NCBI GenBank assembly: GCA_000004695.1
Contig: CM000151.3
Coordinates: 1,312,001-1,376,000 of the forward strand
Reading direction: 5' to 3'
DNA length: 64,000 nt
Origin: Dictyostelium discoideum
Taxonomy: Eukaryota
The first letter of the stretch is position 1. Each line of letters opens with the position of its first letter. The position numbers and the translations under genes are program-made. This document shows, piece by piece, positions 1-53,643 of this stretch. Below the pieces are notes generated by a model. The model saw nothing but the letters and a program-made list of their open reading frames with translations. It did no database searches and was not told the origin of the DNA.

Positions 1-449
1 CAATTCAACTCTCTATGATTTCTGCACAGGATATATTAAGTGTGATGAAGTTAATGGAAAAATAAAAGAGTTTGTATCATATTTTTTTATTTTTTTTTAT
101 ATTATTTTAACTAACTTTATTTAATTTATTTTCTAGTATATCTATAAAAAACATTATACCTAGTGGGTATAATAACCAATCAATATTACCAACAGACTTA
201 GCGTGTCTTCCTAATTTAAATAAACTGTATGTATAATTAAAATTAAAAAAAAATAAAAAAATAAAAAATTCTTATTAAACATTTTAAATATAATTTATAG
301 ATATCTCGAAAATCTAAATATATCAAAACAGCTTGTATTTTATCAATTCCCTCAAAAAATGGGTCAAGTAACATATAATTATGGAGACTATGAGTGTAGT
401 TCAATTGACCAAAAACTACCGGAAATTCCATTTTTGTAAGTTTGGCAAA

Positions 450-482
<33 letters not shown>

Positions 483-3400
483 CTTTTTTTCTTTTTTTGA
501 TATATATATATATATATTATTAAAATAAAAAAATAAAATAAAAGTATTCTAAAATAAAATTTTATTTTAAGTTATTTTTATTGTAAATTTATTTCTGGAA
601 CAACACTTAAAATGTCATACATATCGAAACAGACATTTTTTGAATTAGGAGATAGTTTTGTGCATTTTGAAAATGATGTTGTTGCGACTCATAATATCTC
701 AATGGTTTCATTTACAGCATATTCATTAAACTTTGCTGACTTTTCAAATTTTCAAGGTTTAGGATTTTTCAAAATGACTTTCAATCAAGATTTTATTATT
801 TCATCAATACAAAACTATTCAACCATTAAATCAAATTCCATACAAATAGAGCACAACATAGATATTCCCTATCCATTTTATATACCTATAAACAATTCCA
901 CTCAAAGATTATCAGTATATGCACGTTTTGAAAAACCAAGTTCAATGATAGATCTCTCAAGTTTAGTTTATTCAGATTTATCTCTTTCGGGAGTAGGAGA
1001 CAAGTTCAATTTAAATGGTGAGATTCCGATAATTCCACCGCCTGGTTGCAATTTTATAATAATGCATGGTAATTTTAATGTATTTCCAAATTTTACATAT
1101 TTTACAGGTGGCTTTACTTCTTTTCAGTCAAACTTTTCAATAGCTTTGCCATCCTATTCAGGTAAAAATACAATGTTTTCAATGATAAACAATAACTTGA
1201 TTGGAACAATTGATGAATCTTGGTGCAATGTCAATTTGATAATTTATAATAATAAATTAACAGGGCATGTTTAATTATAAATTAATTCATAATATAAAAA
1301 TAAACAAAATTAACTTTATCTAACTTTTAATTTTTTTTTTACAATAGAAAAATTCCTACATGTTTTACTTGTTATTTTTCAGATCCTGCAGTTTATACTT
1401 CTTTTTCTGGTAACCAATTTACCAACTACAACCAATCAATTGGGTGCCCTGAATTTGCACCAAGATTTGAATTGATGGACATTTCAACCAAAACTTTCCG
1501 TGTAACAGGTATTAATATAGGCTTTACTCCTATGAATTGGTTATTAAACTCAGTTTACTTTCCTTATAATTCCCAAGCTATCTCAACGGGATATGAATAT
1601 GTTGTATCGTACTTATTTTCAATTATTCCTAATCCAAAATACTTTGGTATATTATTTGTGTATCCAGCACCACCACAAACAATATACTTCCCTCTTGGTG
1701 ACCAATTCCCAAATCCAACCGGAATAAAAATAACATCAAATCAATTATTAATTACAGGTGAATTATTTTCAAGTTATATGGGTTACTCAAATCAATCAGT
1801 CCAATTTGAAGAAACATCTACTAATTGTACAATAAAAGATGGTAATTTCTTTAATATAACTTGTGAATTTGTACCATCATCTATTTCTACCTTAACATAC
1901 CCAACAATCATTAAAATTAAAAATGATAATTTAACAAGAAGAGTAATTGTCAATCCGTTAATCGGACAATTAAATCAAATTCCATGTCCTAATAGTTGCG
2001 ATGATATTAGTAATAGTATTTGTGATCTTAATCAAGGTATTTGTATCAGTTGTGTTGATGATTGTGGAATATTCGGTGAATGTAATTTTCAAACCAAAAC
2101 CTGTGATTGTGATTCAAATCATCAAGGTCCAAATTGTTCTATACCATTTATACAATGTCCAACAGGTTTAAATTCTTTAATTTGTAGTAGTGTAGATTAT
2201 AAAATGTGTAACAATCAAACTGGTGTTTGTACTTGCTCTCCAAATCAACAGGGTCAAGATTGCTCATTACCATTTAAACAATGTCCAGTTGGTTTGGATT
2301 CGTTAATATGTAGTGGAGGTAATAACAATTGTAATAATCAAACTGGCATTTGTTATTGTGATAGTAAATTTACAAATGATGATTGTTCAAAACCAAATCA
2401 ATATATATCATCTGTTTCACCATCAAACACAAATGGAGGTGAGGCATCATTTTTTGGTTGGTTTGGAGATATTCATTCAAATCCATCATTATTAATTGGA
2501 AATCAACAATGTCAACCAATTACATATAATTCTTCAATCGAAATTAGATGTATTGCACCACCAGGTAATGGAGTATATGATATTACTTTTAATCAAAATT
2601 ATATCATGTATCAATTAAGAAATGGTTACAGCTATCTTGAAATTTTTAGAAATTGTCCAAACAACTGTACAAATTCAAATCAAGGAAATTGTAATACTTC
2701 AAATGGAGAATGTAATTGTATAAACAATTATTACTCATTCGATTGTAGTTTAAAAAGAAATAATAATACAGGTGGTAACAATGGTGGTAATCCATCAATC
2801 GATCCATCAACAGGTGGGACTAATATTACTGATAATCAAGTAAATTTCCAAATTTATTTTATAAATTTATTTGAAATCGATTTCAACGGTAATATTGTAA
2901 ATCAATATTCATTACAAAGTAATTGGACTCTCAATAAGACTAAAGATTCACAAGAAAATAATATTTATAAATTAACACAAATCATTCAACAATCATGTGA
3001 AATTGTAACATTGATCGAAGAAATCTCAACATCTAAACAATATTCATTTGCAGGCTCAACATTCACATTAGATGCTGGTTCAATTAAATTAACAATTTCA
3101 ATATCAAATTATATTTATAAAAGCAGTTTAAATACATTACAACTTCAATTAATATCATCAGTAGATAACGAAAATGAAGAATCAGATTGTAATATTAAAC
3201 AAGTTTCTACAAATGAAACCAATACATCCTCATTTAAATATATTAAAATTTCAAAAGATAATAGAGTCCTTCAAGGTAGATTCATTAATCAAATACTATC
3301 AGATGGAAGACCAACATATTTGTCAACTGATATTAAAAGTGATGGTAATTCAGTAATTGCAACATTAAATCTACCACATTTTGTAAATCAATCAATTATC

Positions 3401-3601
3401 GATCCAGACTTTTCAGTTTTACTCGAAAATGATTTTAAATCAGAATGTGATACTAAAAACTCTCGTGAATGGTTAATACCAGTTGCTGTTGTAATTCCTG
3501 TTCTCAGTGTTTGTTTTATTGTAGTGATTATCTATATTATTTATAGGAAACAATTTATAGAGAAACCTCTAAAAATAAAATTAGCAGCTTTAGGAAATTA
3601 A
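1..3601 (+). CDS. LRR / EGF-like / IPT-like type I transmembrane protein, tandem paralogue A (exon 1 truncated by window start)
   Basis: Five-exon model, approx exons <1..69, 137..226, 301..435, 572..1264, 1348..3601; all intron phases are 2 and consistent. Exon 4 is ORF 612..1274 (plant-type LxxNxLxGxIP leucine-rich repeats, e.g. FNLNGEIPIIPP and NKLTG|KIP across the intron). Exon 5 is ORF 1472..3601 (Cys-rich EGF-like modules CDCDSNHQGPNC, IPT/TIG-like GWFGDIHSNPSLLIGNQQCQPI..IRCIAPPGNG, C-terminal TM WLIPVAVVIPVLSVCFIVVIIYIIY plus a short tail). About 90% nt identity to copies B and C, including introns. Intron 4 donor is GC (ACAGG|GCATGT) where B and C have GT. Confidence 0.7.
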
Positions 3602-3689
3602 AAATAAATAAATAAATAAATATTAATTGGTATATATATATATTTTGATCTATTCTTTTTTTATCTATAAATCTTTATTGTGATACAAA

Positions 3690-3960
3690 ATCCTTTACAG
3701 GAGGGTTGTTTCAATGATTGAATAAATGATAAATCAGCAACGATCAATATAATCGATTAAAAGAAATTGAGTATTATTTTGGAGTTATAATTAATTTGTA
3801 ATTAATTTTTCATTTATAACCATGAGAATTTCTTTTCACTTAATAAGTAATTGGTAAATAAAACAAGTAGTACCGAATAAACAAATTGAAGAGATTAAAT
3901 TATATTCATAAAATAATTTGATAATTGATTATTACCACTACTATTACAATTTGAAATTAC
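3690..3960 (-). pseudogene. Truncated, stop-containing duplicate of the C-terminal end of the 7TM giant gene (paralogous to 14640..14900)
   Basis: About 80% nt identity to 14640..14900, which on the minus strand encodes ...FQSIIFIVADSSFIQSLQQPSYKGF of the giant gene. Here the equivalent codons read F*SIILIVADLSFIQSLKQPSCKGF (CAA to TAA stop). Similarity ends near 3960-4020. It sits about 90 bp after the stop of copy A, as the intact gene sits 80 bp after copy C. Confidence 0.6.
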
Positions 3961-4473
3961 TAATTCTGAAATTCTATTTGGCTGTAATTGTAAATTTTGA
4001 ATCATTAATTATTATATTTGAATGATTTTTTGAAAGAATACACATAAAACTATAAATCCTCTTTATATATATATAAATAATAAACTTCTTTTATTCGTCT
4101 CTCTGTTGCTAAATCGTCTTCGTTTAAGAATAATTAACTAATATATAAACATGAATAATATTATAAACAGTGTACAACAATTCATTCTTTATTATTATAA
4201 TTAATCAACACAATATAAACCTCTTTAATGATTCCCAAAGACGTCACATTTTATTTTTTTTTTTTATTAAATCACTTAAAAAAAAAAAAAAAAAAAAAAG
4301 ATAACAGAGATGGTGTAATTTGGAAAAAAAAAAAAAAAAAATTGAAAAAAAAAAAAAATTAAAAAAAAAAAACAAATATGAATAAATTAAAAATGATTTG
4401 GATTTTATTTGTTAGCTCTCGTTGGATTAAAAATTGTCCAAATATTAAAAATAAAAATAATTATTCTAGAATG

Positions 4474-4849
4474 TTCATCTAATTCTGTATATTAAATACG
4501 TTGTATCTACAACTGAAAATATTTTAATACCATCAATAATTAATGGTATTTGAGATAACCTATCTTTACTATTTATTGGATTTAAATCATTTAAAATTAA
4601 AATGTTTTTTTTTACATTATTTAATTTTTTTAATATAGTTTTATGATATTTTACGATTTGATCAATTGTTGGATAACATTTTATAAAATGTAAATATAAT
4701 AATAAATCTTTTAAATTTAAATTTATATTATATCTCTTAACTTTGTTTGGAGATAAAAAAAACTATTTTTATCAATCCAAAATAAGATTTAAACAATCTT
4801 TCATTAGAAAAAAAAAAATTTCTACATTATATTCATTTAATAATGACAT
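4474..4849 (-). CDS. Candidate small gene: a stop-free 94-codon reading frame, possibly preceded by an ATG mini-exon
   Basis: Minus-strand frame with no stop from about 4756 to 4474 (..LSPNKVKRYNINLNLKDLLLYLHFIKCYPTIDQIVKYHKTILKKLNNVKKNILILNDLNPINSKDRLSQIPLIIDGIKIFSVVDTTYLIYRIR*), which is unlikely by chance in 80% AT DNA. A possible ATG exon (MSLLNEYN, 4849..4826) joins in frame through a weak, short GTAGAA..ATAG intron of about 63 nt. No canonical start inside the long frame, so it is absent from the ORF track. Confidence 0.25.
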
Positions 4850-5793
4850 TTTCGAAATATATGTAAAAAAAAAAAAGTTAGTGTAATTTTAAAAAAAGTT
4901 GGTGTAATTTAAATTTTTTTTTTTTATTTTTATTTTTTTTTTTTTTACTAAAATGCCCAAAGCATCCTCTTGGTAACCAGCCAAAGGATTCTTATTTAAA
5001 ATCAGATTTAATTAAAAATTTAAATTTAATTGCTGATGATATTATCACCAATTTAAATTTGAATTTTCAACAAAAAAGAACTAAAACAGCTATCAAAAAG
5101 AATTAAAAAAATTAATTCTGATCTTAAAAGCCATACAATATTTGGGATGTCAGATTTCAATTGAAAAATGTTTGAAGTTTTCAATTAACAATATCCTGAA
5201 AAAAAAAAAAGAAAATTGATTTAATAGGATGGGTTGAATCCAACTAAATGTTAAACATAAATAAATAAAAAAATAATCCAAAAATAAATTTTTTATTTTT
5301 CTCATTTTTTTTTTTTTTTTTTCAGATTACGCCATCTCTATTTGGTATTTTTTTTTTTTTTATTTTTTTTTTTTTTTTCAGATTACGCCATCTCTAATAT
5401 TATTTTTATTTTAACTGTGGAGGATATTTTTTTTTAATAAAAAAAAAACCTATAGTTGGTTTTCAATATAGTATGTTGTATAAAACTTTAGTATCATTTG
5501 TGTGCAAAAAACTGGTTCATAATTAAAACAATTTTCTAACACCTCAAATCTGATTTTTTTTTTTTATGATGCGCGTTGCCAAAAAAAAAAAAAAAAAAAA
5601 GATTCACAAGTCAGAAAATAATAAAAAAAAAAAGATATTTTTTCACAGTGGATATTTTTTTTTTTTGATATTTTTTCCTTATTTTTTTTTATTTTTTTTT
5701 TTTTTTCAAAAAAATATCTAATTAAACTGTGAATTGGTTTTATTGATTTTTTTTTTTTTATTTTTTTATTTATTTTGTTTTTTTAGATAATAA

Positions 5794-6213
5794 ATGGTTA
5801 ATTTTTTTATTTGTTTTTTGATGTGTTCAATGTTTTTTTGTTATATTAATTGCATTGAACCTCCAGTAGATGAATATAATTGTTTCTTTGATTTTATTAC
5901 AAAAATAAACCTTTTTTCATTCTATCCAAATACCAATGCTACTCACTATAATTTTTGCACAAATAATATTGTATGTGATGGAGTTACTGGAACAATAAAA
6001 GAGTATGTATTTTATTTTATTTTATTTTATTTTATTTTATTTTATTTTATTTTATTTTATTTTATTTTATTTTATTTTTTTTTTTTTTTTAACTAACTTT
6101 ATTAAATTTATTTTAGTATTACTATATTAAACACCTTAACTAGTGGATATAATAACCAATCAATATTACCAACAGACTTAGCGTGTCTTCCTAATTTTAA
6201 TAGAATGTAGGTA

Positions 6214-6262
<49 letters not shown>

Positions 6263-9200
6263 CCTAATAATTATACAGATATTTCCAAAATCTAGTTATA
6301 TCAAAAGAACTTGTATTTTATCAATTCCCACAAAAAATTAATGAAGTAACATATGATTATGGAGACTATCCTTGCAGTCCGATTGATCAAGAGCTACCTG
6401 GAACATTTGCCTTGTGAGTATTGAAATATTTTTTTTTTTTTGACTACTAAAATTATTTATTAAAAAAAAAAAAAAATAATATTCTAAAATAATATTTTAT
6501 TTTTAGTTATTTTTATTGTAAAACTATTTCGGGAACAACAATAAAAATATCACACATAATGAAACCTTCAATTTTTTATTTTAGAAATAGTTTTGTACAT
6601 TTCGAAAATGATGTTGTTGCAACTCATAATATCTCAACGATTTCATTTTCAGTGTTTTCATTAAGCTTTGCAGATTTTTCTAATTTTATAAGTTTGGGAA
6701 TTTTCCAAATAACTTTCAATCAAGATTTTGTTATTTCATCAATACAAAACTTTTCAACCATTAAATCAAATTCCATCTCAATAGATCACAACCAAAATAA
6801 TTTCTATCCATTTTATGTACCAATAAATAACTCCACTCAATCATTATCAATAGCGGCACTATTTGAAAAACCAAATTCAATGATAGATCTTTCAAGTTAT
6901 GGTTTTAAACATTTACTTTTATCGAAAGTTGGAGAAAAGTTTAATTTAAATGGTGAGATTCCGATAATTCCACCCACTAGTAGCAATTTTTTAATAAACT
7001 TAGGCAATTTTAATGTATTTCCAAACTTAACAAAATTTTCTGGGACTTTTAGTTCATCTGGGTCTAACTTTTCAATTGCTTTACCATCACATTCAGGTAA
7101 AAGTACAATGGTGTCTTTAGTAAATAATAACTTTTTTGGAACAATTGATGAATCTTGGTGCAATGCCAATTTGATAGTCACCGGTAATAAATTAACAGGG
7201 TATGTTTAAATTAATAAAAAAATAATCCATATAAATCTAAATATATCTAACTTTATAATTTTTTTTTTTTATTAATAGAAAAATACCTACATGTTTTACC
7301 TGTTATTTTTCAGATATCTCATTTTTTAATTATTTTTCTGGTAACCAATTTACAAACTACAACCAATCAATTGGGTGTTCTGAATTTGCACCAAGATTTG
7401 AATTGTTGGACATTTCAACCAATACTTTCCGTGTAACAGGTATTAATATAGGGTTTAACCCAAGATATTGGTTATTAAACTCAGTTGACTTTCTAAATAG
7501 TTACCAAGCTATCTCAACGGGATATGAATATGTTGTATCGTATATATTTGCAAGAATACCTAATCCAAAATACTTTAATGTTACATTTGTTCATCCAGCA
7601 CCATCACAAACAATATACTTCCCTCTTGGTGATCAATTACCAAATCCAACCGGTATTAAAATAACATCAAATCAATTAATAATTACAGGTGAATTATTTT
7701 CAAGTTATATGGGTTACTCAAATCAATCAGTCCAATTTGAAGAATCATCTACTAATTGTACAATAAAAGATGGTAATTTCTTTAATATAACTTGTGAATT
7801 TGTACCATCATCTATTTCTACCTTAACATACCCAACAATCATTAAAATTAAAAATGATAATTTAATAAGAAGAGTAATTGTCAATCCATTAATTGGACAA
7901 TTAAATCAAATTCCATGTCCCAATAATTGTGATGATCTTATTAATAAAATCTGTGATCTTTCTAAGGGTATCTGTGTCTGGAAAATTTGTAAAAATGATT
8001 GTGGAATTTTTGGCGAATGTAATGATCAAACTGGAGAGTGTGATTGTGATTCAAATCATCAAGGTCCAAACTGTTCTATACCATTTATACAATGCCCAAC
8101 AGGTTCAAATTCTTTAATTTGTAGTAGTGTAGATTATAATATGTGTAACAATCAAACTGGTATTTGTACTTGCTCAACAAATCAACAAGGTCAAAATTGT
8201 TCATTACCATTTAAACAATGTCCAGTTGGTTTGGATTCCTTAATATGCAGTGGAGGTAATAGCAATTGTAATAATCAAACAGGAGTTTGTTATTGTGATT
8301 CAAATCATCAAGGTTCAACTTGTTCAAAACCATTTAAACAATGTCCAACGGGTCTAAATTCTTTAATTTGTAGTAGTGTAGATAATAATATGTGTAATAA
8401 TCAAACTGGTGTTTGTACATGTTCTCCTAGTCAACAAGGTCAAGATTGCTCATTACCATTTAAGCAATGCCCAGTTGGTTTGGATTCCTTAATATGCAGT
8501 GGAGGTAATAACAATTGTAAAAATCAAACAGGTATTTGTTATTGTGATTCAAATCATCAAGACTCTGATTGCTCATTACCATTTAAACAATGTCCAGTTG
8601 GTTTGGATTCTTTAATTTGTAGTGGGGGTGATAACAACTGTAATAATCAAACTGGTGTTTGTACATGTTCTCCAAATCATCAAGACTCTGATTGCTCATT
8701 ACCATTTAAACAATGTCCAGTTGGTTTAGATTCTTTAATTTGTAGTGGGGGTAATAACAATTGTAATAATCAAACTGGAATTTGTTATTGTGATAGTAAA
8801 TTTACAAATGATAACTGCTCAAAACCAAATCAATATATATCATCTGTTTCACCATCGACCACAAATGGAGGTGAAGCATCATTTTTTGGTTGGTTTGGAG
8901 ATATTCATTCAAATCCATCATTATTAATTGGAGCTCAACAATGTCAACCAATTACATATAATTCTTCAATCGAAATTAGATGTATTGCACCACCAGGTAA
9001 TGGAGTATATGATATTACTTTTAATCAAAATGATATCATGTATCAATTAAGAAATGGTTACAGCTATCTTGAAATTTTTAGAAATTGCCCAAACAATTGT
9101 ACAAATTCAAATCAAGGAAATTGCAATACTTCAAATGGAGAATGTAATTGTATAAACAATTATTACTCATTCGATTGTAGTTTAAAAAGAAATAATAATA

Positions 9201-10042
9201 CAGGTGGTAACAATGGTGGTAATCCATCAATCGATCCATCAACAGGTGGAACTAATATTACTGATAATCAAGTAAATTTCCAAATTTATTTTAAAAATTT
9301 ATTTGAAATCGATTTCAACGGTAATATTGTAAATCAATATTCATTACAAAGTAATTGGACTCTCAATAAAACTAAAGATTCACAAGAAAATAATATTTAT
9401 AAATTGACTCAAATCATTCAACAATCATGTGAAATTGTAACATTGATCGAAGAAATCTCAACATATAAACAATATTCATTTGCAGGCTCAACATTCACAT
9501 TAGATGCTGGTTCAATTAAATTAACAATTTCAATATCAAATTATATTTATAAAAGCAGTTTAAATACATTACAACTTCAATTAATATCATCAGTAGATAA
9601 CGAAAATGAAGAATCAGATTGTAATATTAAACAAGTTTCAACAAATGAAACCAATACATCCTCATTTAAATATATTAAAATTTCAAAAGATAATAGAGTC
9701 CTTCAAGGTAGATTCATTAATCAAATACTATCAGATGGAAGACCAACATATTTGTCAACTGATATTAAAAGTGATGGTAATTCAGTAATTGCAACATTAA
9801 ATCTACCACATTTTGTAAATCAATCAATTATCGATCCAGACTTTTCAGTTTTACTCGAAACTGATTTTAAATCAGAATGTGACAATAAAAACTCTCGTAA
9901 ATGGTTAATACCAGTTGCTGTGACAGTCCCAATCGTTGGTCTTTGTTGTATTGGAGTGATTGTATATTTTTTATATAGAAAACATTTTATTGAGATACCT
10001 CTAAAAGTTAAATTAGAAAGTATTGGAAATAAAATAAAATAA
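5794..10042 (+). CDS. LRR / EGF-like / IPT-like type I transmembrane protein, tandem paralogue B (expanded EGF-module array, about 1296 aa)
   Basis: Exons approx 5794..6002, 6117..6206, 6279..6413, 6507..7199, 7279..10042. Donors GTATGT/GTAGGT/GTGAGT/GTATGT, acceptors after T-rich ..AG. Exon lengths 209/90/135/693 are identical to copy C. Exon 1 encodes a signal peptide (MVNFFICFLMCSMFFCYINC) plus a Cys-containing N-terminus. The last exon has six 41-aa C-x-C EGF-like modules versus two in A and C, then IPT-like, an extra EGF, a roughly 300-aa membrane-proximal domain and a TM (WLIPVAVTVPIVGLCCIGVIVYFLY). The ORF track called 7403 with a TTG start and the frame is open upstream of it, which supports splicing from exon 4. 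Confidence 0.75.
8060..8830 (+). repeat. Coding tandem array of about 123-bp (41-aa) EGF-like module units, six units in copy B
   Basis: Alternating units CSxPFxQCPTGxNSLICSSVDxNMCNNQTGxCTCSxxQQGQx and CSLPFKQCPVGLDSLICSGGxxNCxNQTGxCYCDSNHQxSx, each beginning CS[ILK]PF[IK]QCP, repeated head to tail. Copies A and C have one pair. Confidence 0.8.
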
Positions 10043-10779
10043 TATTAAATAAAATAAAAATAAATAAACAAATAAAATGATAAATTGTCACTATTATTTT
10101 ATTTTTTATATTATTTGTAAATATTATTTAAAAGATTAAGTTTTTATTTTTTTTATTTTTTTTTATTTTTTTTTTAGGTTTAAAAAATTAATTTTTTTTA
10201 TAATAATAATTTGGTCACTAAATGAAATTTCCAAACCTACCTGAAAAGAATATTCTAAACCAAAAAGAAAATTCTTATAATGTTAATCAAAACATTCAAA
10301 TCTGGCAAAAAAAAAAAAAAAAAAATGGAAAAAAAAATGAAAAAATAGCAAAGATTAAATTTTAATTTTTTTTTTTTAACAAAATTAATTATTAGACGTA
10401 AAGATGACGACTGAACATTTGATTTTTTTTTTAAAAAAGATCTTTGAGGCTACCCAAAAAAAAATGAAGAGGTAAAGTAGATATTAAAAAAAAAAAAATC
10501 CTAAAAAAAAAAAAATATCCAAAAATAAAATCAAAAATGTTTATTTCCCAATAAATATCTCAAATCATTTGTTCTTTTTTTTCAAAAATGAGATTACCAT
10601 ATCATTTCAAATAAAACCAATTTTATTATCAAAATAAATTATGGCAGTTATTAAAAAAATAAATGGATATGTTTTTTTACTTACCGAAGATTTTTTTTTA
10701 AATTGATAGTAAAAAAAAAAAAATCTTAATTTTTTTAACATTTTCCATTTTCCATTTTTTTTATAATAATTAGATTTTA

Positions 10780-13700
10780 ATGGGGAAATTTATTATTTGT
10801 TTTTTGTTGTGTTCAATGTTTTTTTGTTATGTTAATTGCATTGAACCTCCAATAGATGAATATAATTGTTTCCTAAATTTTATTACAAAAATAAACCTTT
10901 TTTCATTATTTCCAAAAACCAATGCCACTCACTATGATTTTTGCACAGGATATATAAAGTGTGATGGAGTTACTGGAACAATAAAAGAGTATGTATTTTA
11001 TTATTTTATTTTTTTTATATTATTTTAACTAACTTTATTAAATTTTTTATTAAAGTGTAACTATTTTAAACACTTTAAAAAGTGGATATAATAACCAATC
11101 GATTTTAGCAACAGACTTAGTGTGCCTTCCTAATTTAAATAGAATGTATGTGTATTTAAAACAATGAAATAAAATAAAATTGCTATTAAACATGTTTATT
11201 ATACTTTTATAGAAATCTCCAAAATCTAAATATATCTAAACAGCTTGTTTTTTATGAATTCCCACAAAAAATTGGTCAAGTAACATATAATTATGGAGAC
11301 TATGAGTGTAGTCCAATTGATCAAAAACTACCTGAAATTCCATCTTTGTAAGTTTGGCAAAATCCTTTTTTTTTCTTTTTTTTAAAAATTAAAATTATGG
11401 TATTCTAAAATAATATTTTATTTTTAGTTATTTTTATTGTAAATCCATTTCTGGAACAACATTTAAAATCTCATACATAACAAAACAGACAATCTTTTAT
11501 TTTGGAGATAGTTTTGTACATTTCGAAAATGATGTTCTTGAGACTCATAATATCTCAATGGTTTCATTTACAGCATATTCGTTAAACTTTGCTGACTTTT
11601 CAAATTTTAAAGGTTTGGGATTTTTCAAGATGACTTTCAATCAAGATTTTATTATTTCATCAATACAAAACTATTCAACCATTAAATCAAATTCCATACA
11701 AATTGAGCACGACACAGATTTTCCCTATCCATTTTATATACCAATAAATAATTTCACTCAAAGATTATCAGTATATGCACGTTTTGAAAAACCAAGTTCA
11801 ATGATAGATCTCTCAAGTTTAGTTTATTCGGATTTATCTCTTTCGGGAGTAGGCGACAAGTTTAATTTTAATGGTGAGATTCCGATAATTCCACCACCTG
11901 GTTGCAATTTTATAATAATGCATGGTAATTTTAATGTATTTCCAAATTTTACATATTTTACAGGTGGCTTTACTTCTTTTCAGTCAAACTTTTCAATATC
12001 CTTGCCATCCTATTCAGGTAAAAATACAATGTTTTCAATGATAAACAATAACTTGATTGGAACAATTGATGAATCTTGGTGCAATGTCAATTTGATAATT
12101 TATAATAATAAATTAACAGGGTATGTTTAATTAAAAATTAAAATAAAAATTAATTATATTAAAAAATAAATAAATATAAAAATAAACAAATTTAACTTTA
12201 TCTAACTTTTTTTTAATAATAGAAAAATACCTACATGTTTTACTTGTTATTTTTCGGATCCTGCGGTTTATACTTCTTTTTCTGGTAACCAATTTACAAA
12301 CTACAACCAATCAATTGGGTGTTCTGAATTTGCACCAAGATTTGAATTGATGGATTTTTCAACTAAAACTTTCCGTGTAACAGGTATTAATATAGGCTTT
12401 ACTCCTATGAATTGGTTATTAAACTCAGTTTACTTTCCTTATAGTTTCCAAGATATCTCAACGGGATATGAATATGTTGTGTCGTATTTATTTTCAATAA
12501 TACCTAATCCAAAATACTTTAATGTTACATTTGCTCATCCAGAACCATCACAAACAATATACTTCCCTCTTGGTGATCAATTACCAAATCCAACCGGTAT
12601 TAAAATAACATCAAATCAATTATTAATTACAGGTGAATTATTTTCAAGTTATATGGGTTACTCAAATCAATCAGTCCAATTTGAAGAATCATCTACTAAT
12701 TGTACAATAAAATATGGTAATTTCTTTAATATAACTTGTGAATTTGTACCATCATCTATTTCTACCTTAACATACCCAACAATCATTAAACTTAAAAATG
12801 ATAATTTAATAAGAAGAGTTATTGTCAATCCATTAATTGGACAACTAAATCAAATTCCATGTCCAAATAATTGCGATGATCTTAATAATAGTATTTGTGA
12901 TCTTAATCAAGGTATTTGTATCAGTTGTGTAGATGATTGTGGAATATTCGGTGAATGTAATTTTCGAACCAGAACCTGTGATTGTGATTCAAATCATCAA
13001 GGTCCAAATTGTTCTATACCATTTATACAATGTCCAACAGGTTTAAATTCTTTAATTTGTAGTAGTGTAGATTATAATATGTGTAACAATAAAACTGGTG
13101 TTTGTACTTGTTCTCCAAATCAACAAGGTCAAGATTGTTCATTACCATTTAAACAATGCCCAGTTGGTTTGTATTCGTTAATATGCAGTGGAGGTAATAA
13201 CAATTGTAACAATCAAACAGGTATTTGTTATTGTGATAGTAAATTTATAAATGATGATTGTTCAAAACCAAATCAATATATATCATCTGTTTCACCATCA
13301 ACCTCAAATGGAGGTGAAGCATCATTTTTTGGTTGGTTTGGAGATATTCATTCAAATCCATCATTATTAATTGGAAATCAACAATGTCAACCAATTACAT
13401 ATAATTCTTCAATCGAAATTAGATGTATTGCACCACCAGGTAATGGAGTATATGATATTACTTTTAATCAAAATGATATCATGTATCAATTAAGAAATGG
13501 TTACAGCTATCTTGAAATTTTTAAAAAATGTCCCAACAATTGTACAAATTCAAATCAAGGAAATTGTAATACTTCAAATGGAGAATGTAATTGTATAAAC
13601 AATTATTACTCATTCGATTGTAGTTTAAAAAGAAATAATAATACAGGTGGTAACAATGGTGGTAATCCATCAATCGATCCATCAACAGGTGGGACTAATA

Positions 13701-14485
13701 TTACTGATAATCAAGTAAATTTCCAAATTTATTTTAAAAATTTATTTGAAATCGATTTCAACGGTAATATTGTAAATCAATATTCATTACAAAGTAATTG
13801 GACTCTCAATAAGACTAAAGATTCACAAGAAAATAATATTTATAAATTAACACAAATCATTGAAATATCATGTGAAATTGTAACATTGATCGAAGAAATC
13901 TCAACATCTAAACAATATTCATTTGCAGGCTCAACATTCACATTAGATGCTGGTTCAATTAAATTAACAATTTCAATATCAAATTATATTTATAAAAGCA
14001 GTTTAAATACATTACAACTTCAATTAATATCATCAGTAGATAACGAAAATGAAGAATCAGATTGTAATATTAAACAAGTTTCAACAAATGAAACCAATAC
14101 ATCCTCATTTAAATATATTAAAATTTCAAAAGATAATAGAGTCCTTCAAGGTAGATTCATTAATCAAATACTATCAGATGGAAGACCAACATATTTGTCA
14201 ACTGATATTAAAAGTGATGGTAATTCAGTAATTGCAACATTAAATCTACCACATTTTGTAAATCAATCAATTATCGATCCAGACTTTTCAGTTTTACTTG
14301 AAAATGATTTTAAATCTGAGTGTGATACTTACAACTCTCGTAAATGGTTAATACCAGTTGCTGTGGCAGTTCCAATCTTTGGTGTTTGTTGTATTGGAGT
14401 GATTATATATTATTTTTATAGAAAACATTTTATTGAAATACCACTAAAAATAAAATTAGGAATTATTGGGAATAAAATAAAATAA
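10780..14485 (+). CDS. LRR / EGF-like / IPT-like type I transmembrane protein, tandem paralogue C (about 1129 aa)
   Basis: Exons approx 10780..10988, 11056..11145, 11213..11347, 11428..12120, 12223..14485. Same architecture and phases as copy B. Signal peptide MGKFIICFLLCSMFFCYVNC. TM WLIPVAVAVPIFGVCCIGVIIYYFY. Stop at 14483..14485. Confidence 0.75.
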
Positions 14486-14565
14486 ATAAAAAACCATTAT
14501 ATTAAAATTGTCGCTGTTATTACTTTATTTTATTTAATTTTTTAATTTATTTGTAAATATTTATT

Positions 14566-19617
<5,052 letters not shown>

Positions 19618-19919
19618 TCTTTTTCAAAATTATCATTATTATTATTAACAAATATAATAAAAAAAAAAACAAAAATAAAAAGAAGAAAAAAAAAAATGAA
19701 AAAAAAAAAAAAAAAAAAAATATCGGCAATTTTCAGTCAATTTTCATACTAAATTTTTGAGATTGCTTGGAAAAAAAAATTAAAATGTGAAAAAAAATAA
19801 AAATAAAAAAAATTAAATAATTAAAAATAAAAATAGATTTATTATTATTATATATATATAAATATAAAATTTACAAATTAAATTATTTTTTATTTATTTA
19901 ATTAAAAATACATTATAAT

Positions 19920-19954
<35 letters not shown>

Positions 19955-19956
19955 CC

Positions 19957-21399
19957 TCAAGATGTAAAAGCTTCTTTTTCTTCAGGTAAAATTTCAATAT
20001 TAATATTTAAAGTGACACTATTTTGAATTACAAAACCAGTTTGTGTAGTTACTAAAGAATTATTTATAAATGATCTCCAACCCCATTTATTTTCGGTATG
20101 GAATATATTTGTTGATGCTAATTTTCTATTTCTTGTGAAATCTTTATTTAATAATTCAAATGAAAATTGAACTTTTGATGGTGTTTGATCATCAAATTTA
20201 TATAAATAAATTGATAAGAAATCTTTTGATTCATCACTTAGGCCGCCATTGGGATAGAATTGAATTTTAAATTTTAAATTTCCAACCATAAATTCGGGAG
20301 ATTCGATTGACTTTGGTTTTGGATAATCTTGTAATTTTTGTGACCAATTTGTGATAACCCATTTATTTTGATAATTAAATTTCAATTCTCTAATTACTTT
20401 TAATTCAGATTGCAATATTTTAAAATCATCTTTAAGTCGGTTATATTCCAATTCTAATTTCTTATATTCCTTTTCAGATTTTTCAAATTTACATATATGT
20501 TGGTCGATTGTTGCTTCCATGTATTTACTATGGTCGATTAATTTCATGTGTTCGGACAACTCGGATCTTGGAAATTCTAGCATACATCCTGCTTCTCTAT
20601 ATTTACATTGTATCACTGTGAATGGACATTCATTCTCTATATGGTATTTTATTCTACCTCTTTCGATTGTGCAATTGAATGTGGGCGAATTACAATTTTG
20701 TGGACATTTAATTGGAAACTTTTCACATTCGGAATAGTGTACTTTACTATCATCAATCACCAACCCTTTCTCACCACAAAACTCACATTCTGATTTCAAC
20801 TTTTTACATTTCTCTGCATGGTCTTTTAATTGATTCTTTCTTAATCTTGTTTTACATTCCTTATCATTTGGACATTCAATAAATTGAAATTGACATTCCT
20901 TTATATGACCTTCTAACTCATCAACTTTTAAAATCTCTTTACAACCAAATTTTTCATCAATTTCAATTTTACCAGAATTTAAAATTCTAAATAAATTTGG
21001 ACAAAATATTTTTTTATTTCTAAATTCCTATTTGTGTATCAAAAAAAAAAATATATTTTTAAAATTATTAATAAAAAAAAAAAAAAATTGAAAAAAAAAA
21101 AAATTATTATTTTTACAAACCTTTTGTAAATAAATATTTTTTGATAATGAATCTACGGAATTCACTCTTGTTCTACATGTCATACATTCTTTTTTTGATT
21201 CCAAAGATTTCATCCAACATAATCTACAATGAACATGTCCTTCTTTACATTGTAAAGCTTCACATTTATTTACATCCATTATACATTCTTCACAAATTGG
21301 ACAATTAAAATTTTCTGATAAAGAAACTGGATCAACAATTAAATCATTTATTGTAAATTTTATTGGTGTAATATTTAATTGTGAAATTGTTGTTGTCAT
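19957..21399 (-). CDS. TRAF-like protein 1 (RING finger, TRAF-type zinc fingers, coiled coil, MATH domain), about 449 aa
   Basis: Exon 1 21121..21399 (C3HC4 RING: CPICEECIMDVNKCEALQCKEGHVHCRLCW..CMTCR). Phase-0 donor CAAAAG|GTTTGT. A 93-bp intron 21028..21120. Exon 2 19957..21027 (acceptor CAAATAG|). Cys/His TRAF zinc fingers (CPNDKECKTRLRKNQLKDHAEKCKKLKSECEFCGEKG...), coiled coil (LELEYNRLKDDFKILQSELK) and MATH-like C-terminus (YQNKWVITNWSQK...FKIQFYPNG). Confidence 0.75.
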
Positions 21400-21453
21400 T
21401 ATTATTAATTTAATTTAAATTATTTTTTTTATTTTTAGAATATTTAATTTAAT

Positions 21454-21490
<37 letters not shown>

Positions 21491-21559
21491 TTTTTTTTAT
21501 TTTAAGAATATTTATTATTATCTGTTTGTTTTACTCCAATATTAATTTTTTTACTATAA

Positions 21560-21591
<32 letters not shown>

Positions 21592-22018
21592 AAAGAAAAA
21601 AAAAATTCTAATTTTAAATTCTAATGATAATAATTTTCTTGTTTAAAAATAAATTATTTAAAAACTGGTAAAACAGACTGGTTTTATTTTCATTTTTTTA
21701 TGATTTTTTTTTTTTTTTTTTGTTTTTTTTTTCTGTTTTTTTATGAAAAAAAAAAGCTGGGATCATTTACCCGTATTAAAACAAAAACAAAAAATTTATA
21801 AATATCATTTCAAAAAAAAAAAAACAAAAATAAAAAAAAAAAAATAAAAATAATTATTTGAATTGATCTTTGATGACAATTGACCAGTGCACATGCTCTC
21901 TGATTTTTTAAAAATGCGCAAAATGTCATAAAAATAAATGCAAAAATAAAAAAAAAAATAAACTAATCTTAAAATGAATAAATTACAACCTTAAAGTTGT
22001 TTAAAGACACAACAATTC

Positions 22019-22072
<54 letters not shown>

Positions 22073-22435
22073 TTTTATTAAAATATTGTTGGTTGTTTTT
22101 GATTCAAGGGAAATAAATAAATAGATTTTTTTTTTTTAGCCAACAGAAGTGTATGTTTTTTTTTTTTTTTAATATCTATACAAGGTTGGGTTTTTTTTTC
22201 TTGTTTATTCCTAAGATTTTTTTTTTTCCTTTTTTTTTTTTTTAATTATTTTTATTTTTTTTATTTTTTATTATTGTATTTAGTTTTTTCTAAAAGTTGT
22301 GTTACAAATATTGGTAGTTTATGAAGAGATGGAGTTTTTGATTATTGTTTTTTTTTTTTTTTGTTTAGTTTATTTTGATTTGTAGTGAAAGGTTTGTTTT
22401 TTTTTTTTTTTTTTGTATTGGAGAGGTTTATAGTT

Positions 22436-24074
22436 TTAATGATTTGAAGTAGTTGTTGTTGTTGTAGTTGTGGTTGTGTTGTTAGTTGTTGATGAAGTAG
22501 TGTTGGTTGTAGAAGGTGATTGAACAGGAATTGAATTTGGAGTAGAAGAAGAGGAGGAGGTAGTTGAAGGTGAAGCAGAATGAGAATTTAAATTTGATGA
22601 CACATTTGCATTTGAATTTGAAGAGGAGGATTGATTAGAAGAAGAGATTGCCAAATTTGGGAATAAAGGTGATGGCAATTCAATTTGATTCATAGCATGT
22701 GATGGAATTAATGTTTTGGCTAGTTTTGGACCGATTGAAGTTTGTTCTGCGATTGTAAAGTTGAAGAGGGGTGGTAAAGGTTTACCATCTGGAAGACATG
22801 TCTTTGGATCTCTTAATTCATCAAAGAATGGATGTGCACAAATTTCAACTGGCTTTAATCTTGAGGATGGATCATAAAGTAAGATTTTTGAGATTAAATC
22901 AATTGATTCGGCCGGTACATCCTTAGCTTTGAATACTCTTGGCCATGGGTTTGCTTTGATCTCTGGGAATTTAAATGAGGTATAATATGGATTCATTGCA
23001 TGAATTTGTTCTTTGGTTGGTGTACCCAATACCTTTATAATCTCTACCAATTGGTCAATACCATTCTCACCAGGGAATAACGGTTGACCCAATAATAATT
23101 CTGCCAAAACACATCCTAATGACCAAACATCAATAGTTGTAGTATAGTTTGTTGATCCAAAAATTAATTCTGGTGCACGATAATGTCTTGAACAAATATA
23201 AGAAACATTAGTTTCTCCTTTAATTAATATCTTTGCACTTTAATAATTAAGTAATATATAAAAAAAATATATAAAAAATAAAGTTAGTATCAAAAAAAGG
23301 GTAAAAAAAAAAAAGTATAGAGAAAATTTACCTTCCAAAATCGCAAAGTTTTAATGTACTGGTTGATGTATCCAACAATAAATTTTGAGGTTTAATATCT
23401 CTATGACAAATTCCAAGTGAATGAATGTAGTTTATTGATCTACACAATTGATATATATATAACTAAAGTTTTTTTTAAAAAAAAAAAAAATTTACTTAGA
23501 AACATTTTCTAAATCTTTCTTGTTATCAATGTTATTAGTTTAATGTTTTAATTACCTTTACAAAAATGTTTGGAACAGGTTGTTTAGACATACTATAGTG
23601 TCTTGAAACTCTGTAAACTGTATCTGGCACATATTCCAATACTAAATTTAAATAAACTTCATCATTCTAGAAATTTGTAAAAGAATTGTTAGAAAATTAT
23701 GTTATTAATTGATCAATATATGTGAATGAATGAATATTAAATATATTTACATCTGATGTGTAGAAACTATTTTTTAATGAAACTATATTTATATGATTTA
23801 ACATCTTCATGATTTGTAATTCTCGATTCTATATTTATAAGAAAAAAGTTAATATACTTGGTTTTTTTTTTTGTTATTAATTTATGGACAAAAAATAATA
23901 ATTTACCTTGTATCTTTGGTCTTGTAAAACCTTTTTTATTGCTACAACCTCTTTGGTATCAGCCACAATTGCTTGAGTGACGACACCAAATGAGCCATTT
24001 CCAATTACCCCCTCTGTTATATAACAAACTCCATTTGATTTAATGATTACTTTATCAAATTTATTTGATCTTGG

Positions 24075-24108
<34 letters not shown>

Positions 24109-24255
24109 GTTGTTGTTGTTGTCTTTTTATTGCCATTATCATCTGTCTCCTTTTTATCTTTCTCTGTTGTGTAATAATATTAGTAATAAGTTATGTGTAT
24201 GATAAATAATAAATAAGAAAGATTTCTTACCCAATATCTGATCCTTTGAACTCAT
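22436..24255 (-). CDS. gskA: Glycogen synthase kinase 3 (GSK3 orthologue), six exons, 467 aa
   Basis: Exons (minus strand) 24231..24255 (MSSKDQIL), 23907..24163 (GNGSFGVV...[13 protein letters not shown]), 23751..23828 ([26 protein letters not shown]), 23556..23666 ([37 protein letters not shown]), 23332..23462 ([39 protein letters not shown]), 22436..23237 ([98 protein letters not shown]...). Near-perfect matches to GSK3 catalytic motifs from memory. Total 1404 nt = 467 aa, which matches the reported Dictyostelium GskA length. Ser/Thr/Asn-rich C-terminal tail. Confidence 0.9.
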
Positions 24256-24648
24256 TTTAAAGTTTTTTTATTATTATTATTATTATTTTATTTTTGAGTT
24301 TTTTTTTATTTTTTTTTTATTTTTTTTTTATTTTTGGTGATGTTATCTATTCTATTTGTAAAAGTTAAAGTTAATATTAAATTTCATGAAGATTGTTATA
24401 TTAAAATAATGAAACAAAAAAAAAAAAAAAAAAAAAATTTTAATTTTAAAAAAAAAAAAATTTTAAAAATTAATTTTAAAAAAAAAATTAAAAAATAAAA
24501 AAAAATAAAAAGTTGATTGATTTATGTGTATAGTGATTAGAAAAAAGAAAGAGGTGTATTGATATTTTATATTATTAAATTGTTATTATTATTATTATTT
24601 TTTTTTTTTTTTTAATTATTACAAAAATGTTTGTGTGGTTATTTAAAA

Positions 24649-24697
<49 letters not shown>

Positions 24698-25146
24698 ATT
24701 TTAAAATTTTTTTTTTTTTTTTTTTTAAAATTTTTTTTTCTTGGGTGTTGGTGTAAAGTGTTGGGTGTTTGATAAAAAATAATAAAAGAAAATAAATTAC
24801 CCACACAAAAAAAAAAAACAAAAAAAAAAACAAAAAAAGAAAAAGAAAAAAGAAAAAAGAATATGGTGATTGATTAATTGAATTATAATATGGAAAGTTA
24901 ATAATTTGGAAGTTTTCAAAAAATAAAAGAATAAATAAAAAAAAAAAAATAAATAATAAATAAATTAAATCTTTTATTAAAAACCATCCATAGTAAATTC
25001 TTGTTTTAATTTATTTATTTATTTATTTCTCTATTTTTTATATTTATTTATCTATTTGTATTTATTTATTTATTATTTATTTATTTATTTATTTTTTTTT
25101 TTTTTGATGCCCAAAATTAAAATTGGTTTATTTTAAGAAAAGAAAG

Positions 25147-53572: not shown

Positions 53573-53643
53573 GGGGAGATCCGAGAATCGAACTCAGGAC
53601 GCTACCACCCAAAGGTAGCATTATACCACTTAACTAATCTCCC
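53573..53643 (-). tRNA. tRNA-Pro (anticodon UGG), 71 nt, no intron
   Basis: Reverse complement of 53573..53643: GGGAGAT TA GTTA AGTGGTA TAAT G CTACC TTTGGGT GGTAG CGTC CTGAG TTCGATT CTCGG ATCTCCC C. 7-bp acceptor stem, D stem GTTA/TAAT (one G-U), anticodon loop TTTGGGT (U33, anticodon TGG, G37), T arm CTGAG/TTCGATT/CTCGG, discriminator C. A-box and B-box-like sequences are present. Confidence 0.85.

Follow-up and report, generated by a model that had tools for sequence, protein, structure and literature searches.

The window analysed here is a 64,000-nucleotide stretch of Dictyostelium discoideum DNA (NCBI GenBank assembly GCA_000004695.1, contig CM000151.3, positions 1,312,001 to 1,376,000 of the forward strand). 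Its G+C content is about 23% overall and ranges from about 15 to 31% in 2-kb windows. The first 20 kb contain three tandem genes of the ComC family (EGF-like domain-containing protein ComC) on the + strand and a large − strand ORF, which is convergent with the third of these genes. Copy A occupies positions 612..3601 according to its Pfam matches, and the window starts inside its duplication unit. Copy B, delimited by Pfam matches and self-BLAST, lies at approximately 5794..10042 and has extra EGF repeats. Copy C spans 10790..14485 by Pfam, with an approximate start that was read from the sequence. The protein of copy A is 100% identical over 750 aa to DDB_G0272336 of D. discoideum AX4, and copy C is identical to DDB_G0272366 outside the intron columns. 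Thus, the window represents chromosome 2 of the AX4/AX2 lineage. The only tRNA gene in the window, tRNA-Pro(TGG), is located on the − strand at 53573..53643.

All three copies match the Pfam families LRR_ComC, Beta-sand_ComC_1st and Beta-sand_ComC_2nd (the two ComC beta-sandwich domains), EGF_2, and ComC_SSD. These matches exceed the Pfam gathering scores, with 245–247 bits for ComC_SSD and 226 bits for LRR_ComC, and A, B, and C can be assigned to the ComC family. The original prediction, made from the sequence without database searches, called these genes LRR-EGF-IPT genes. The IPT part of this label was not reproduced: the ComC-specific domains were matched instead, and a TIG/IPT match is absent from A, B, and C at E < 0.01. 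When comparing the three genes, differences in size can be noted. The large exon of copy B comprises 879 codons, compared with 709 and 712 codons in copies A and C, and copy B contains additional tandem repeats within positions 8018..8794, with a unit length of about 125 bp or a multiple thereof, which correspond to EGF-like modules and are not present in A and C.

The level of identity between the copies varies strongly along their length. A self-BLAST comparison showed that positions 1..3679 (copy A) are homologous to 10920..14565 (copy C) with 90.9% identity. A central segment of about 1 kb, which corresponds to the ComC supersandwich domain region, is 97–100% identical in DNA between all three copies (2426..3426, 8858..9858, and 13301..14301). 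Roughly the final 200 bp of coding sequence and large portions of the 5′ halves are only about 71–85% identical in the A/B and B/C comparisons. Copies A and C are closer to each other, with 81% at the 3′ end and mostly 83–96% in the 5′ half. Such a distribution suggests that the three genes evolve in concert through gene conversion.

The convergent neighbour of copy C is an intact ORF of 1683 codons on the − strand (14566..19617). The predicted protein has a signal peptide, a long Asn-rich repetitive ectodomain with poly-N tracts, a Cys-rich module, and C-terminal hydrophobic segments. The Kyte–Doolittle profile indicates eight or nine such segments between residues 1339 and 1673. The protein had originally been labelled a 7TM giant; the number of hydrophobic segments is not exactly seven, and no Pfam family was found for the protein at E < 0.01, so that these results do not support the label or membership of a 7TM/GPCR family.

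An exhaustive HMMER search revealed that the relatives of the neighbour protein are dictyostelid proteins annotated as “hypothetical” or “transmembrane”, with long matches of at most 44% identity. A word-indexed search with its C-terminal 510 aa gave no match, and exact look-ups of the 1683-aa protein and of AX4 DDB_G0272334 (P0028) returned no record. The missing database record of this protein and of its 95%-identical orthologues looks like an indexing gap rather than a lack of annotation. The long matches belong to a family of large dictyostelid transmembrane proteins without a Pfam model, which share about 30–44% identity with the neighbour protein and which also occur in tandem arrays. 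Among them, DLAC_10607 (A0A151Z4C0) of Tieghemostelium lacteum and ACTFIW_002090 of D. discoideum share its Cys-rich module, its C-terminal multi-pass region, and its last hydrophobic segment. The last 27 codons of the gene encode this final segment, which is conserved in the family members P0002, P0006, P0007, and P0013 and across members of the family from D. discoideum, D. dimigraforme, and T. lacteum.

For comparison, orthologous loci were reached by homology search with copy C in the genomes of wild isolates from the D. discoideum and D. citrinum clades, the assemblies being those of Holland et al. 2025 (PMC12745789). The loci are designated below by L numbers. Genes are called at positions orthologous to the neighbour gene in L002, L007, and L008; they encode 1703, 1693, and 1674 aa, respectively, and all are convergent with the last ComC copy. 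In the D. discoideum isolate represented by L001, three paralogues of the gene (1563, 1589, and 1588 aa) are arranged head to tail in a tandem array at another locus (10001..24778). This array suggests that the neighbour gene belongs to an expanding, uncharacterised dictyostelid family that has no Pfam model.

A fragment of this neighbour gene, hereafter referred to as the parent, was predicted to lie directly after copy A, in the same position and orientation that the intact gene has relative to copy C, and the present analysis supports this prediction. A local alignment of 3600..4100 with 14480..15100 was performed with a reverse-complement control. Positions 3678..3918 align with 14649..14889 on the same strand (+/+), without gaps and with 211 of 241 bases identical (87.6%). 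The alignment score is 334, compared with 54 for the control, and the E value in self-BLAST is 1e-81. The match had been expected against the reverse complement of 14480..14950; in that direction the score of 54 corresponds to background only, and the true match is direct. The identity over the 241 ungapped bases is far above the level of about 60% that had been taken as the background of AT-rich DNA. The reading frame of the parent is kept on the − strand of this first piece, with 76% aa identity over 84 aa (residues 1577–1660 in tblastn). A tblastn search of the window with the parent protein revealed no further relic beyond 3667..4039.

The homology is not restricted to coding sequence. The intergenic DNA 3′ of copy A (3602..3677) is homologous to the intergenic DNA between copy C and the parent (14486..14565). 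The homology of A and C ends at 3679/14565 and resumes at 3678/14649; hence, 83 bp of the parent (14566..14648), comprising its last 27 codons and the stop codon, are absent at the right end of this intergenic segment. Given the conservation of the final hydrophobic segment in the family, these 83 bp are genuine coding sequence that has been lost by the relic. The fragment had been predicted to span 3690..3960 and to represent the very end of the gene. Homology is indeed found there; the contiguous match covers only 3678..3918, and the final 83 bp are lacking.

The first piece carries disabling mutations. In the part that corresponds to residues 1577–1656 of the parent, four in-frame stop codons were found: Q1584* (CAA>TAA, 3895–3897), S1611* (TCA>TAA, 3814–3816), E1615* (GAA>TAA, 3802–3804), and Q1630* (CAA>TAA, 3757–3759). 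A single change of CAA to TAA had been noted previously; such a change is present, and it is one of two of this kind among the four stops. The 30 differences between the piece and the parent were polarised with the orthologues in three other genomes as reference. The relic branch accounts for 23 changes, distributed as 9, 6, and 8 over the three codon positions, whereas the five changes on the branch of the intact gene are all in third positions (0, 0, and 5); two of the 30 are ambiguous. This contrast indicates that the copy evolves neutrally, whereas the parent is under constraint. The stop codons, the neutral substitution pattern, and the flanking homology agree with the original description of the fragment as pseudogenised, and with its arrival beside copy A through the duplication that produced the ComC-family array.

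Two further pieces of the parent follow the first one. The second piece (3918..3955, − strand) is the tail of the “beta” piece and corresponds to parent positions 16089..16117 and a few bases beyond: 26 of 29 bases are identical between 3918..3946 and 16089..16117. The third piece (3951..4078, − strand) corresponds to 17911..18044, that is, to residues 524–570 approximately. The alignment of 3951..4044 with 17911..18014 is robust, and the last 30 bp or so (to about 4078 and 18044) are of low complexity and uncertain. The three pieces are collinear with the parent and have the same orientation; stretches of about 1.2 kb and 1.8 kb of the parent are missing between them.

The choice of the null model is important for the third piece. 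With random unmasked segments of the window, 18 of 400 reached or exceeded the observed score, a null that was inflated by poly-N and poly-A matches. After masking of simple repeats, 3919..4100 aligned with the remaining part of the parent with a score of 79 (null 31.8 ± 5.0, maximum 51), none of 500 trials reached this score, and the best match was the piece at 17911. The score of the third piece itself is 80, compared with 38 ± 4.6 for dinucleotide shuffles. Its identity to the parent is about 70–77%, with exact boundaries that are uncertain. The same part of the intact gene evolves fast (84–90% identity between strains), and the low identity of the piece seems to fit this rate. The identity to the L007 orthologue is 80.5%, and the piece retains ancestral states that are common to the L007 and L008 genes and have been lost from the AX4 gene. 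A collinear third piece with ancestral states indicates that the copy beside A once reached at least residue 524 or so of the 1683.

Relics of the parent were also found in other genomes. L002 (GCA_054859385.1) is collinear with the window at about 90–96% identity and contains three ComC genes followed by the convergent 1703-aa orthologue of the parent. Its relic after copy A consists of two parts, 4337..4437 (parent 14870..14972, about 84%) and 4434..4513 (parent 16025..16104, about 82%), and it lacks parent 14649–14869. The relic of L006 (GCA_054859355.1) covers parent 14778..14972 and 16026..16117 and has two small internal deletions; window positions 3807..3920 are 86% identical to L006 13795..13908. 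A second relic in the L002 genome follows another ComC copy in L009 (256..674), a locus upstream of L002, and is 92% identical to that of L006. No relics were detected in the fetched parts of L003, L004, L005, L007, and L008, even at word size 7. The number of ComC copies in the array varies from three to five or more among isolates and species.

In a multiple alignment, the 83-bp gap is common to the window relic and to those of L002 and L006; the L009 relic has the gap and derived substitutions as well. Derived substitutions that occur in no intact gene are found in both the window relic and the L006 relic, ACCGAATAAACAAATTG versus ATTGAATAAACCAATTG and AATTTG versus AATTCA, and the L002 relic, where it overlaps, carries the same derived TTG. 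The shared gap and substitutions indicate that the three relics descend from one ancestral pseudogene. By its position, the window relic would be the orthologue of the L002 relic after copy A, with about 20 bp of sequence overlap and a shared 5′ flank. The junction at parent 14972|16025 is identical in the L002 relic and in the L006 and L009 relics. The first piece is about 88% identical to the genes of the discoideum clade and 74% identical to the D. citrinum gene; accordingly, the duplication probably took place after the split from D. citrinum.

The relics of the other isolates are decisive for the nature of the end at 3918. The fragment was originally described as ending abruptly, and the ungapped homology does stop sharply at 3918/14889; what follows is not unrelated DNA, since two collinear parent pieces come next. 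The end was further taken to be the breakpoint of the segmental duplication, and the duplicated unit to be the ComC-family gene with no more of its neighbour than the 3′ end. Neither view holds. At a primary breakpoint, homology should end alike in all orthologous copies with nothing beyond, whereas the relics of L002, L006, and L009 retain the parent past 14889 (14870–14972 and 16025–16117), and the window itself contains matches to 16089–16117 and 17911–18014. Window positions 3918..3955 are identical to L006 14034..14071 at 36 of 38 bases and also match L009 583..625. Consequently, a segment of about 125 bp that is present in a relic of the L006 type has been deleted from the window lineage; the deletion lies between “...AAAATAATTTG” and “ATAATTGATTATTA...” and shows a TTG microhomology where the ends meet. 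Judging from this comparison, 3918/3919 is a lineage-specific secondary deletion junction and not the original breakpoint. The true breakpoint lies further into the neighbour gene or beyond it, at a position that the window alone cannot place. In general, the point where homology stops in one genome may differ from the duplication breakpoint, and sister genomes can reveal the difference.

Several other explanations of the fragment were considered. An AT-rich, low-complexity background could imitate homology in a window of about 23% G+C, where hundreds of spurious low-complexity BLAST matches have E < 1e-10. The probability of this explanation is negligible in view of the 241 ungapped and non-repetitive bases at 87.6% identity, the score of 334 against 54, the preserved frame with 76% aa identity, and the presence of the same relic at the orthologous place in other genomes. 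It is also highly improbable that the duplicated unit included only the last 250–330 bp of the neighbour, with 3918/14889 as its edge: the sharp stop of the contiguous homology would be expected in this case, but the collinear pieces beyond 3918, the longer relics of L002, L006, and L009, and the deletion of about 125 bp relative to L006 would not. A later transfer by gene conversion from the junction of copy C and the parent, with 3918 as the end of the conversion tract, is very unlikely. Conversion is clearly active in the array, given the identity of 97–100% over the central 1 kb of A, B, and C compared with about 80% at their 3′ ends. However, the relic has 23 private changes and the 83-bp deletion, both in common with the orthologous relics in other genomes, which argues for an old copy and not for a recently converted one; moreover, more diverged collinear pieces lie past 3918, and a deletion relative to an L006-type relic explains the junction.

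The fragment could also have been retained for a function. It might serve copy A as a 3′ UTR or terminator, or it might give rise to antisense read-through RNA that feeds RNA interference with the parent gene as the target. Because transcription of copy A proceeds towards the relic, read-through RNA would be antisense to the coding strand of the parent; perfect runs of about 19–21 nt are shared with the parent, for example AATTATATTCATAAAATAATT; and relics persist in three genomes. On the other hand, the relic has been deleted differently in each lineage, L002 has lost nearly all of the part that the window retains, and the substitutions on the relic branch are evenly spread and include four stops. 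The loss of most of the relic in a lineage-specific manner speaks against a functional role, and we regard retention for function as highly unlikely. The more specific scheme, in which read-through from copy A would yield RNA complementary to the 3′-terminal part of the neighbour mRNA and the Dictyostelium RNAi machinery would let the relic regulate its parent, is even less probable.

The reading that we prefer is that window positions 3678 to about 4078 are, very probably, an unprocessed (duplicated) pseudogene relic without function, derived from the convergent gene for the 1683-aa membrane protein (14566..19617). The tests for an unprocessed pseudogene gave parent homology, disabling lesions, relaxed substitutions, and homology of the non-coding flank. 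The homology runs into flanking non-coding DNA, and neither the poly-A tail nor the target-site duplication of a retrocopy is present; since the homology spans the intergenic flank, duplication took place at the DNA level and not through a retrocopy. The parent ORF has no intron in the region of the relic, and therefore intron loss is unusable as a criterion. We infer that the relic lacks a function, and it may still have a residual role in the 3′ region of copy A or as a source of antisense RNA.

We infer the following order of events. In an ancestor of the D. discoideum clade, a ComC-family gene would have undergone segmental duplication along with much of its convergent neighbour; the copy would have included no less than 3.4 kb of the 3′ part of the neighbour, as far as about residue 524, and possibly the whole gene. 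The extra copy of the neighbour would not have been maintained and would have gained stop codons. An 83-bp deletion, which removed the last 27 codons, and a deletion of about 1.05 kb (parent 14973–16024) would have occurred early; both are present in all relics that still cover those positions. The module of a ComC gene plus relic would then have been duplicated again. Two relics are present in one wild-isolate genome (L002 and L009), and the junction 14972|16025 is common to both relic types, which suggests that the module was re-duplicated after the first deletions. Different further pieces would have been lost in each lineage, and in the AX4 lineage the deletion of about 125 bp with TTG microhomology would have produced the “abrupt end” at 3918/3919. 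This history relies on copy-to-copy orthology, which gene conversion among the ComC copies makes uncertain.

The relic is an ordinary pseudogene fragment in the course of decay; fragments of this kind are familiar, and the genome is well studied. Like other unprocessed pseudogene fragments, it combines DNA homology to a neighbouring parent, including the intergenic flank, with truncation, stop codons, a neutral pattern of substitution, and erosion by deletions. Nothing essential distinguishes it from them; its one peculiarity is that it derives from the convergent neighbour of an expanding gene family and has been re-duplicated together with a member of that family. Copies A, B, and C belong to the ComC family, whereas the relic is not a ComC gene and is merely carried along with them. 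Its value is modest and is that of a marker for the growth of the ComC-family array on chromosome 2. It indicates that the first duplication took in most or all of the convergent neighbour gene, and that lineages of the D. discoideum clade have lost different parts through deletions of about 30 bp to 1 kb, at least one of which has junctional microhomology.

The array resembles the rapidly evolving tgrB1/tgrC1 hotspot (Holland et al. 2025, PMC12745789), which was described in the same wild-isolate genomes and is also a polymorphic tandem array of genes for surface proteins with duplication, gene conversion, and pseudogenes. The hotspot is a different locus with a different gene family, and the word “comC” is absent from the main text of that paper.

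A few additional features of the array can be noted. After copy B, no convincing relic of the parent was found, and the homology of B and C fades in T-rich DNA at about 10173/14595. Beyond the relic, the spacer between A and B (4060..5400) shows neither nucleotide similarity nor a tblastx match to the spacer between B and C, to the fetched loci, or to the rest of the window. The motif “TTTTTTCAGATTACGCCATCTCT” occurs twice in this spacer, at about 5315 and 5370. In L002, a short spacer (4560..4700) with a long inverted repeat, AAAATTGGGCAATTTCTTAATTTTT ... AAAAATAAGAAATTGCCCAATTTT, is the counterpart of the 1.5-kb unique spacer of AX4 (3919..5394). The inverted repeat may represent a hairpin or a small mobile element.

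Other genes are also located between the ComC copies. Just after the relics of L006 and L009, a − strand gene for a protein of 1808–1889 aa lies between ComC copies (L006 14382..20674 and L009 930..6963). The product is strongly internally repetitive and has no Pfam match, and a tblastn comparison of the parent protein with this gene in L006 revealed no match. A ribonuclease T2 gene on the − strand was found between ComC copies in several genomes, and L003 also contains a DDE_1 transposase-like gene between the copies; the regions concerned are L003 18503..21976, L006 8583..9529, L007 8281..9241, and L009 11737..12745. Neither gene was detected at the corresponding place in the window. Thus, insertions, and not only duplications, have contributed to the remodelling of the array.
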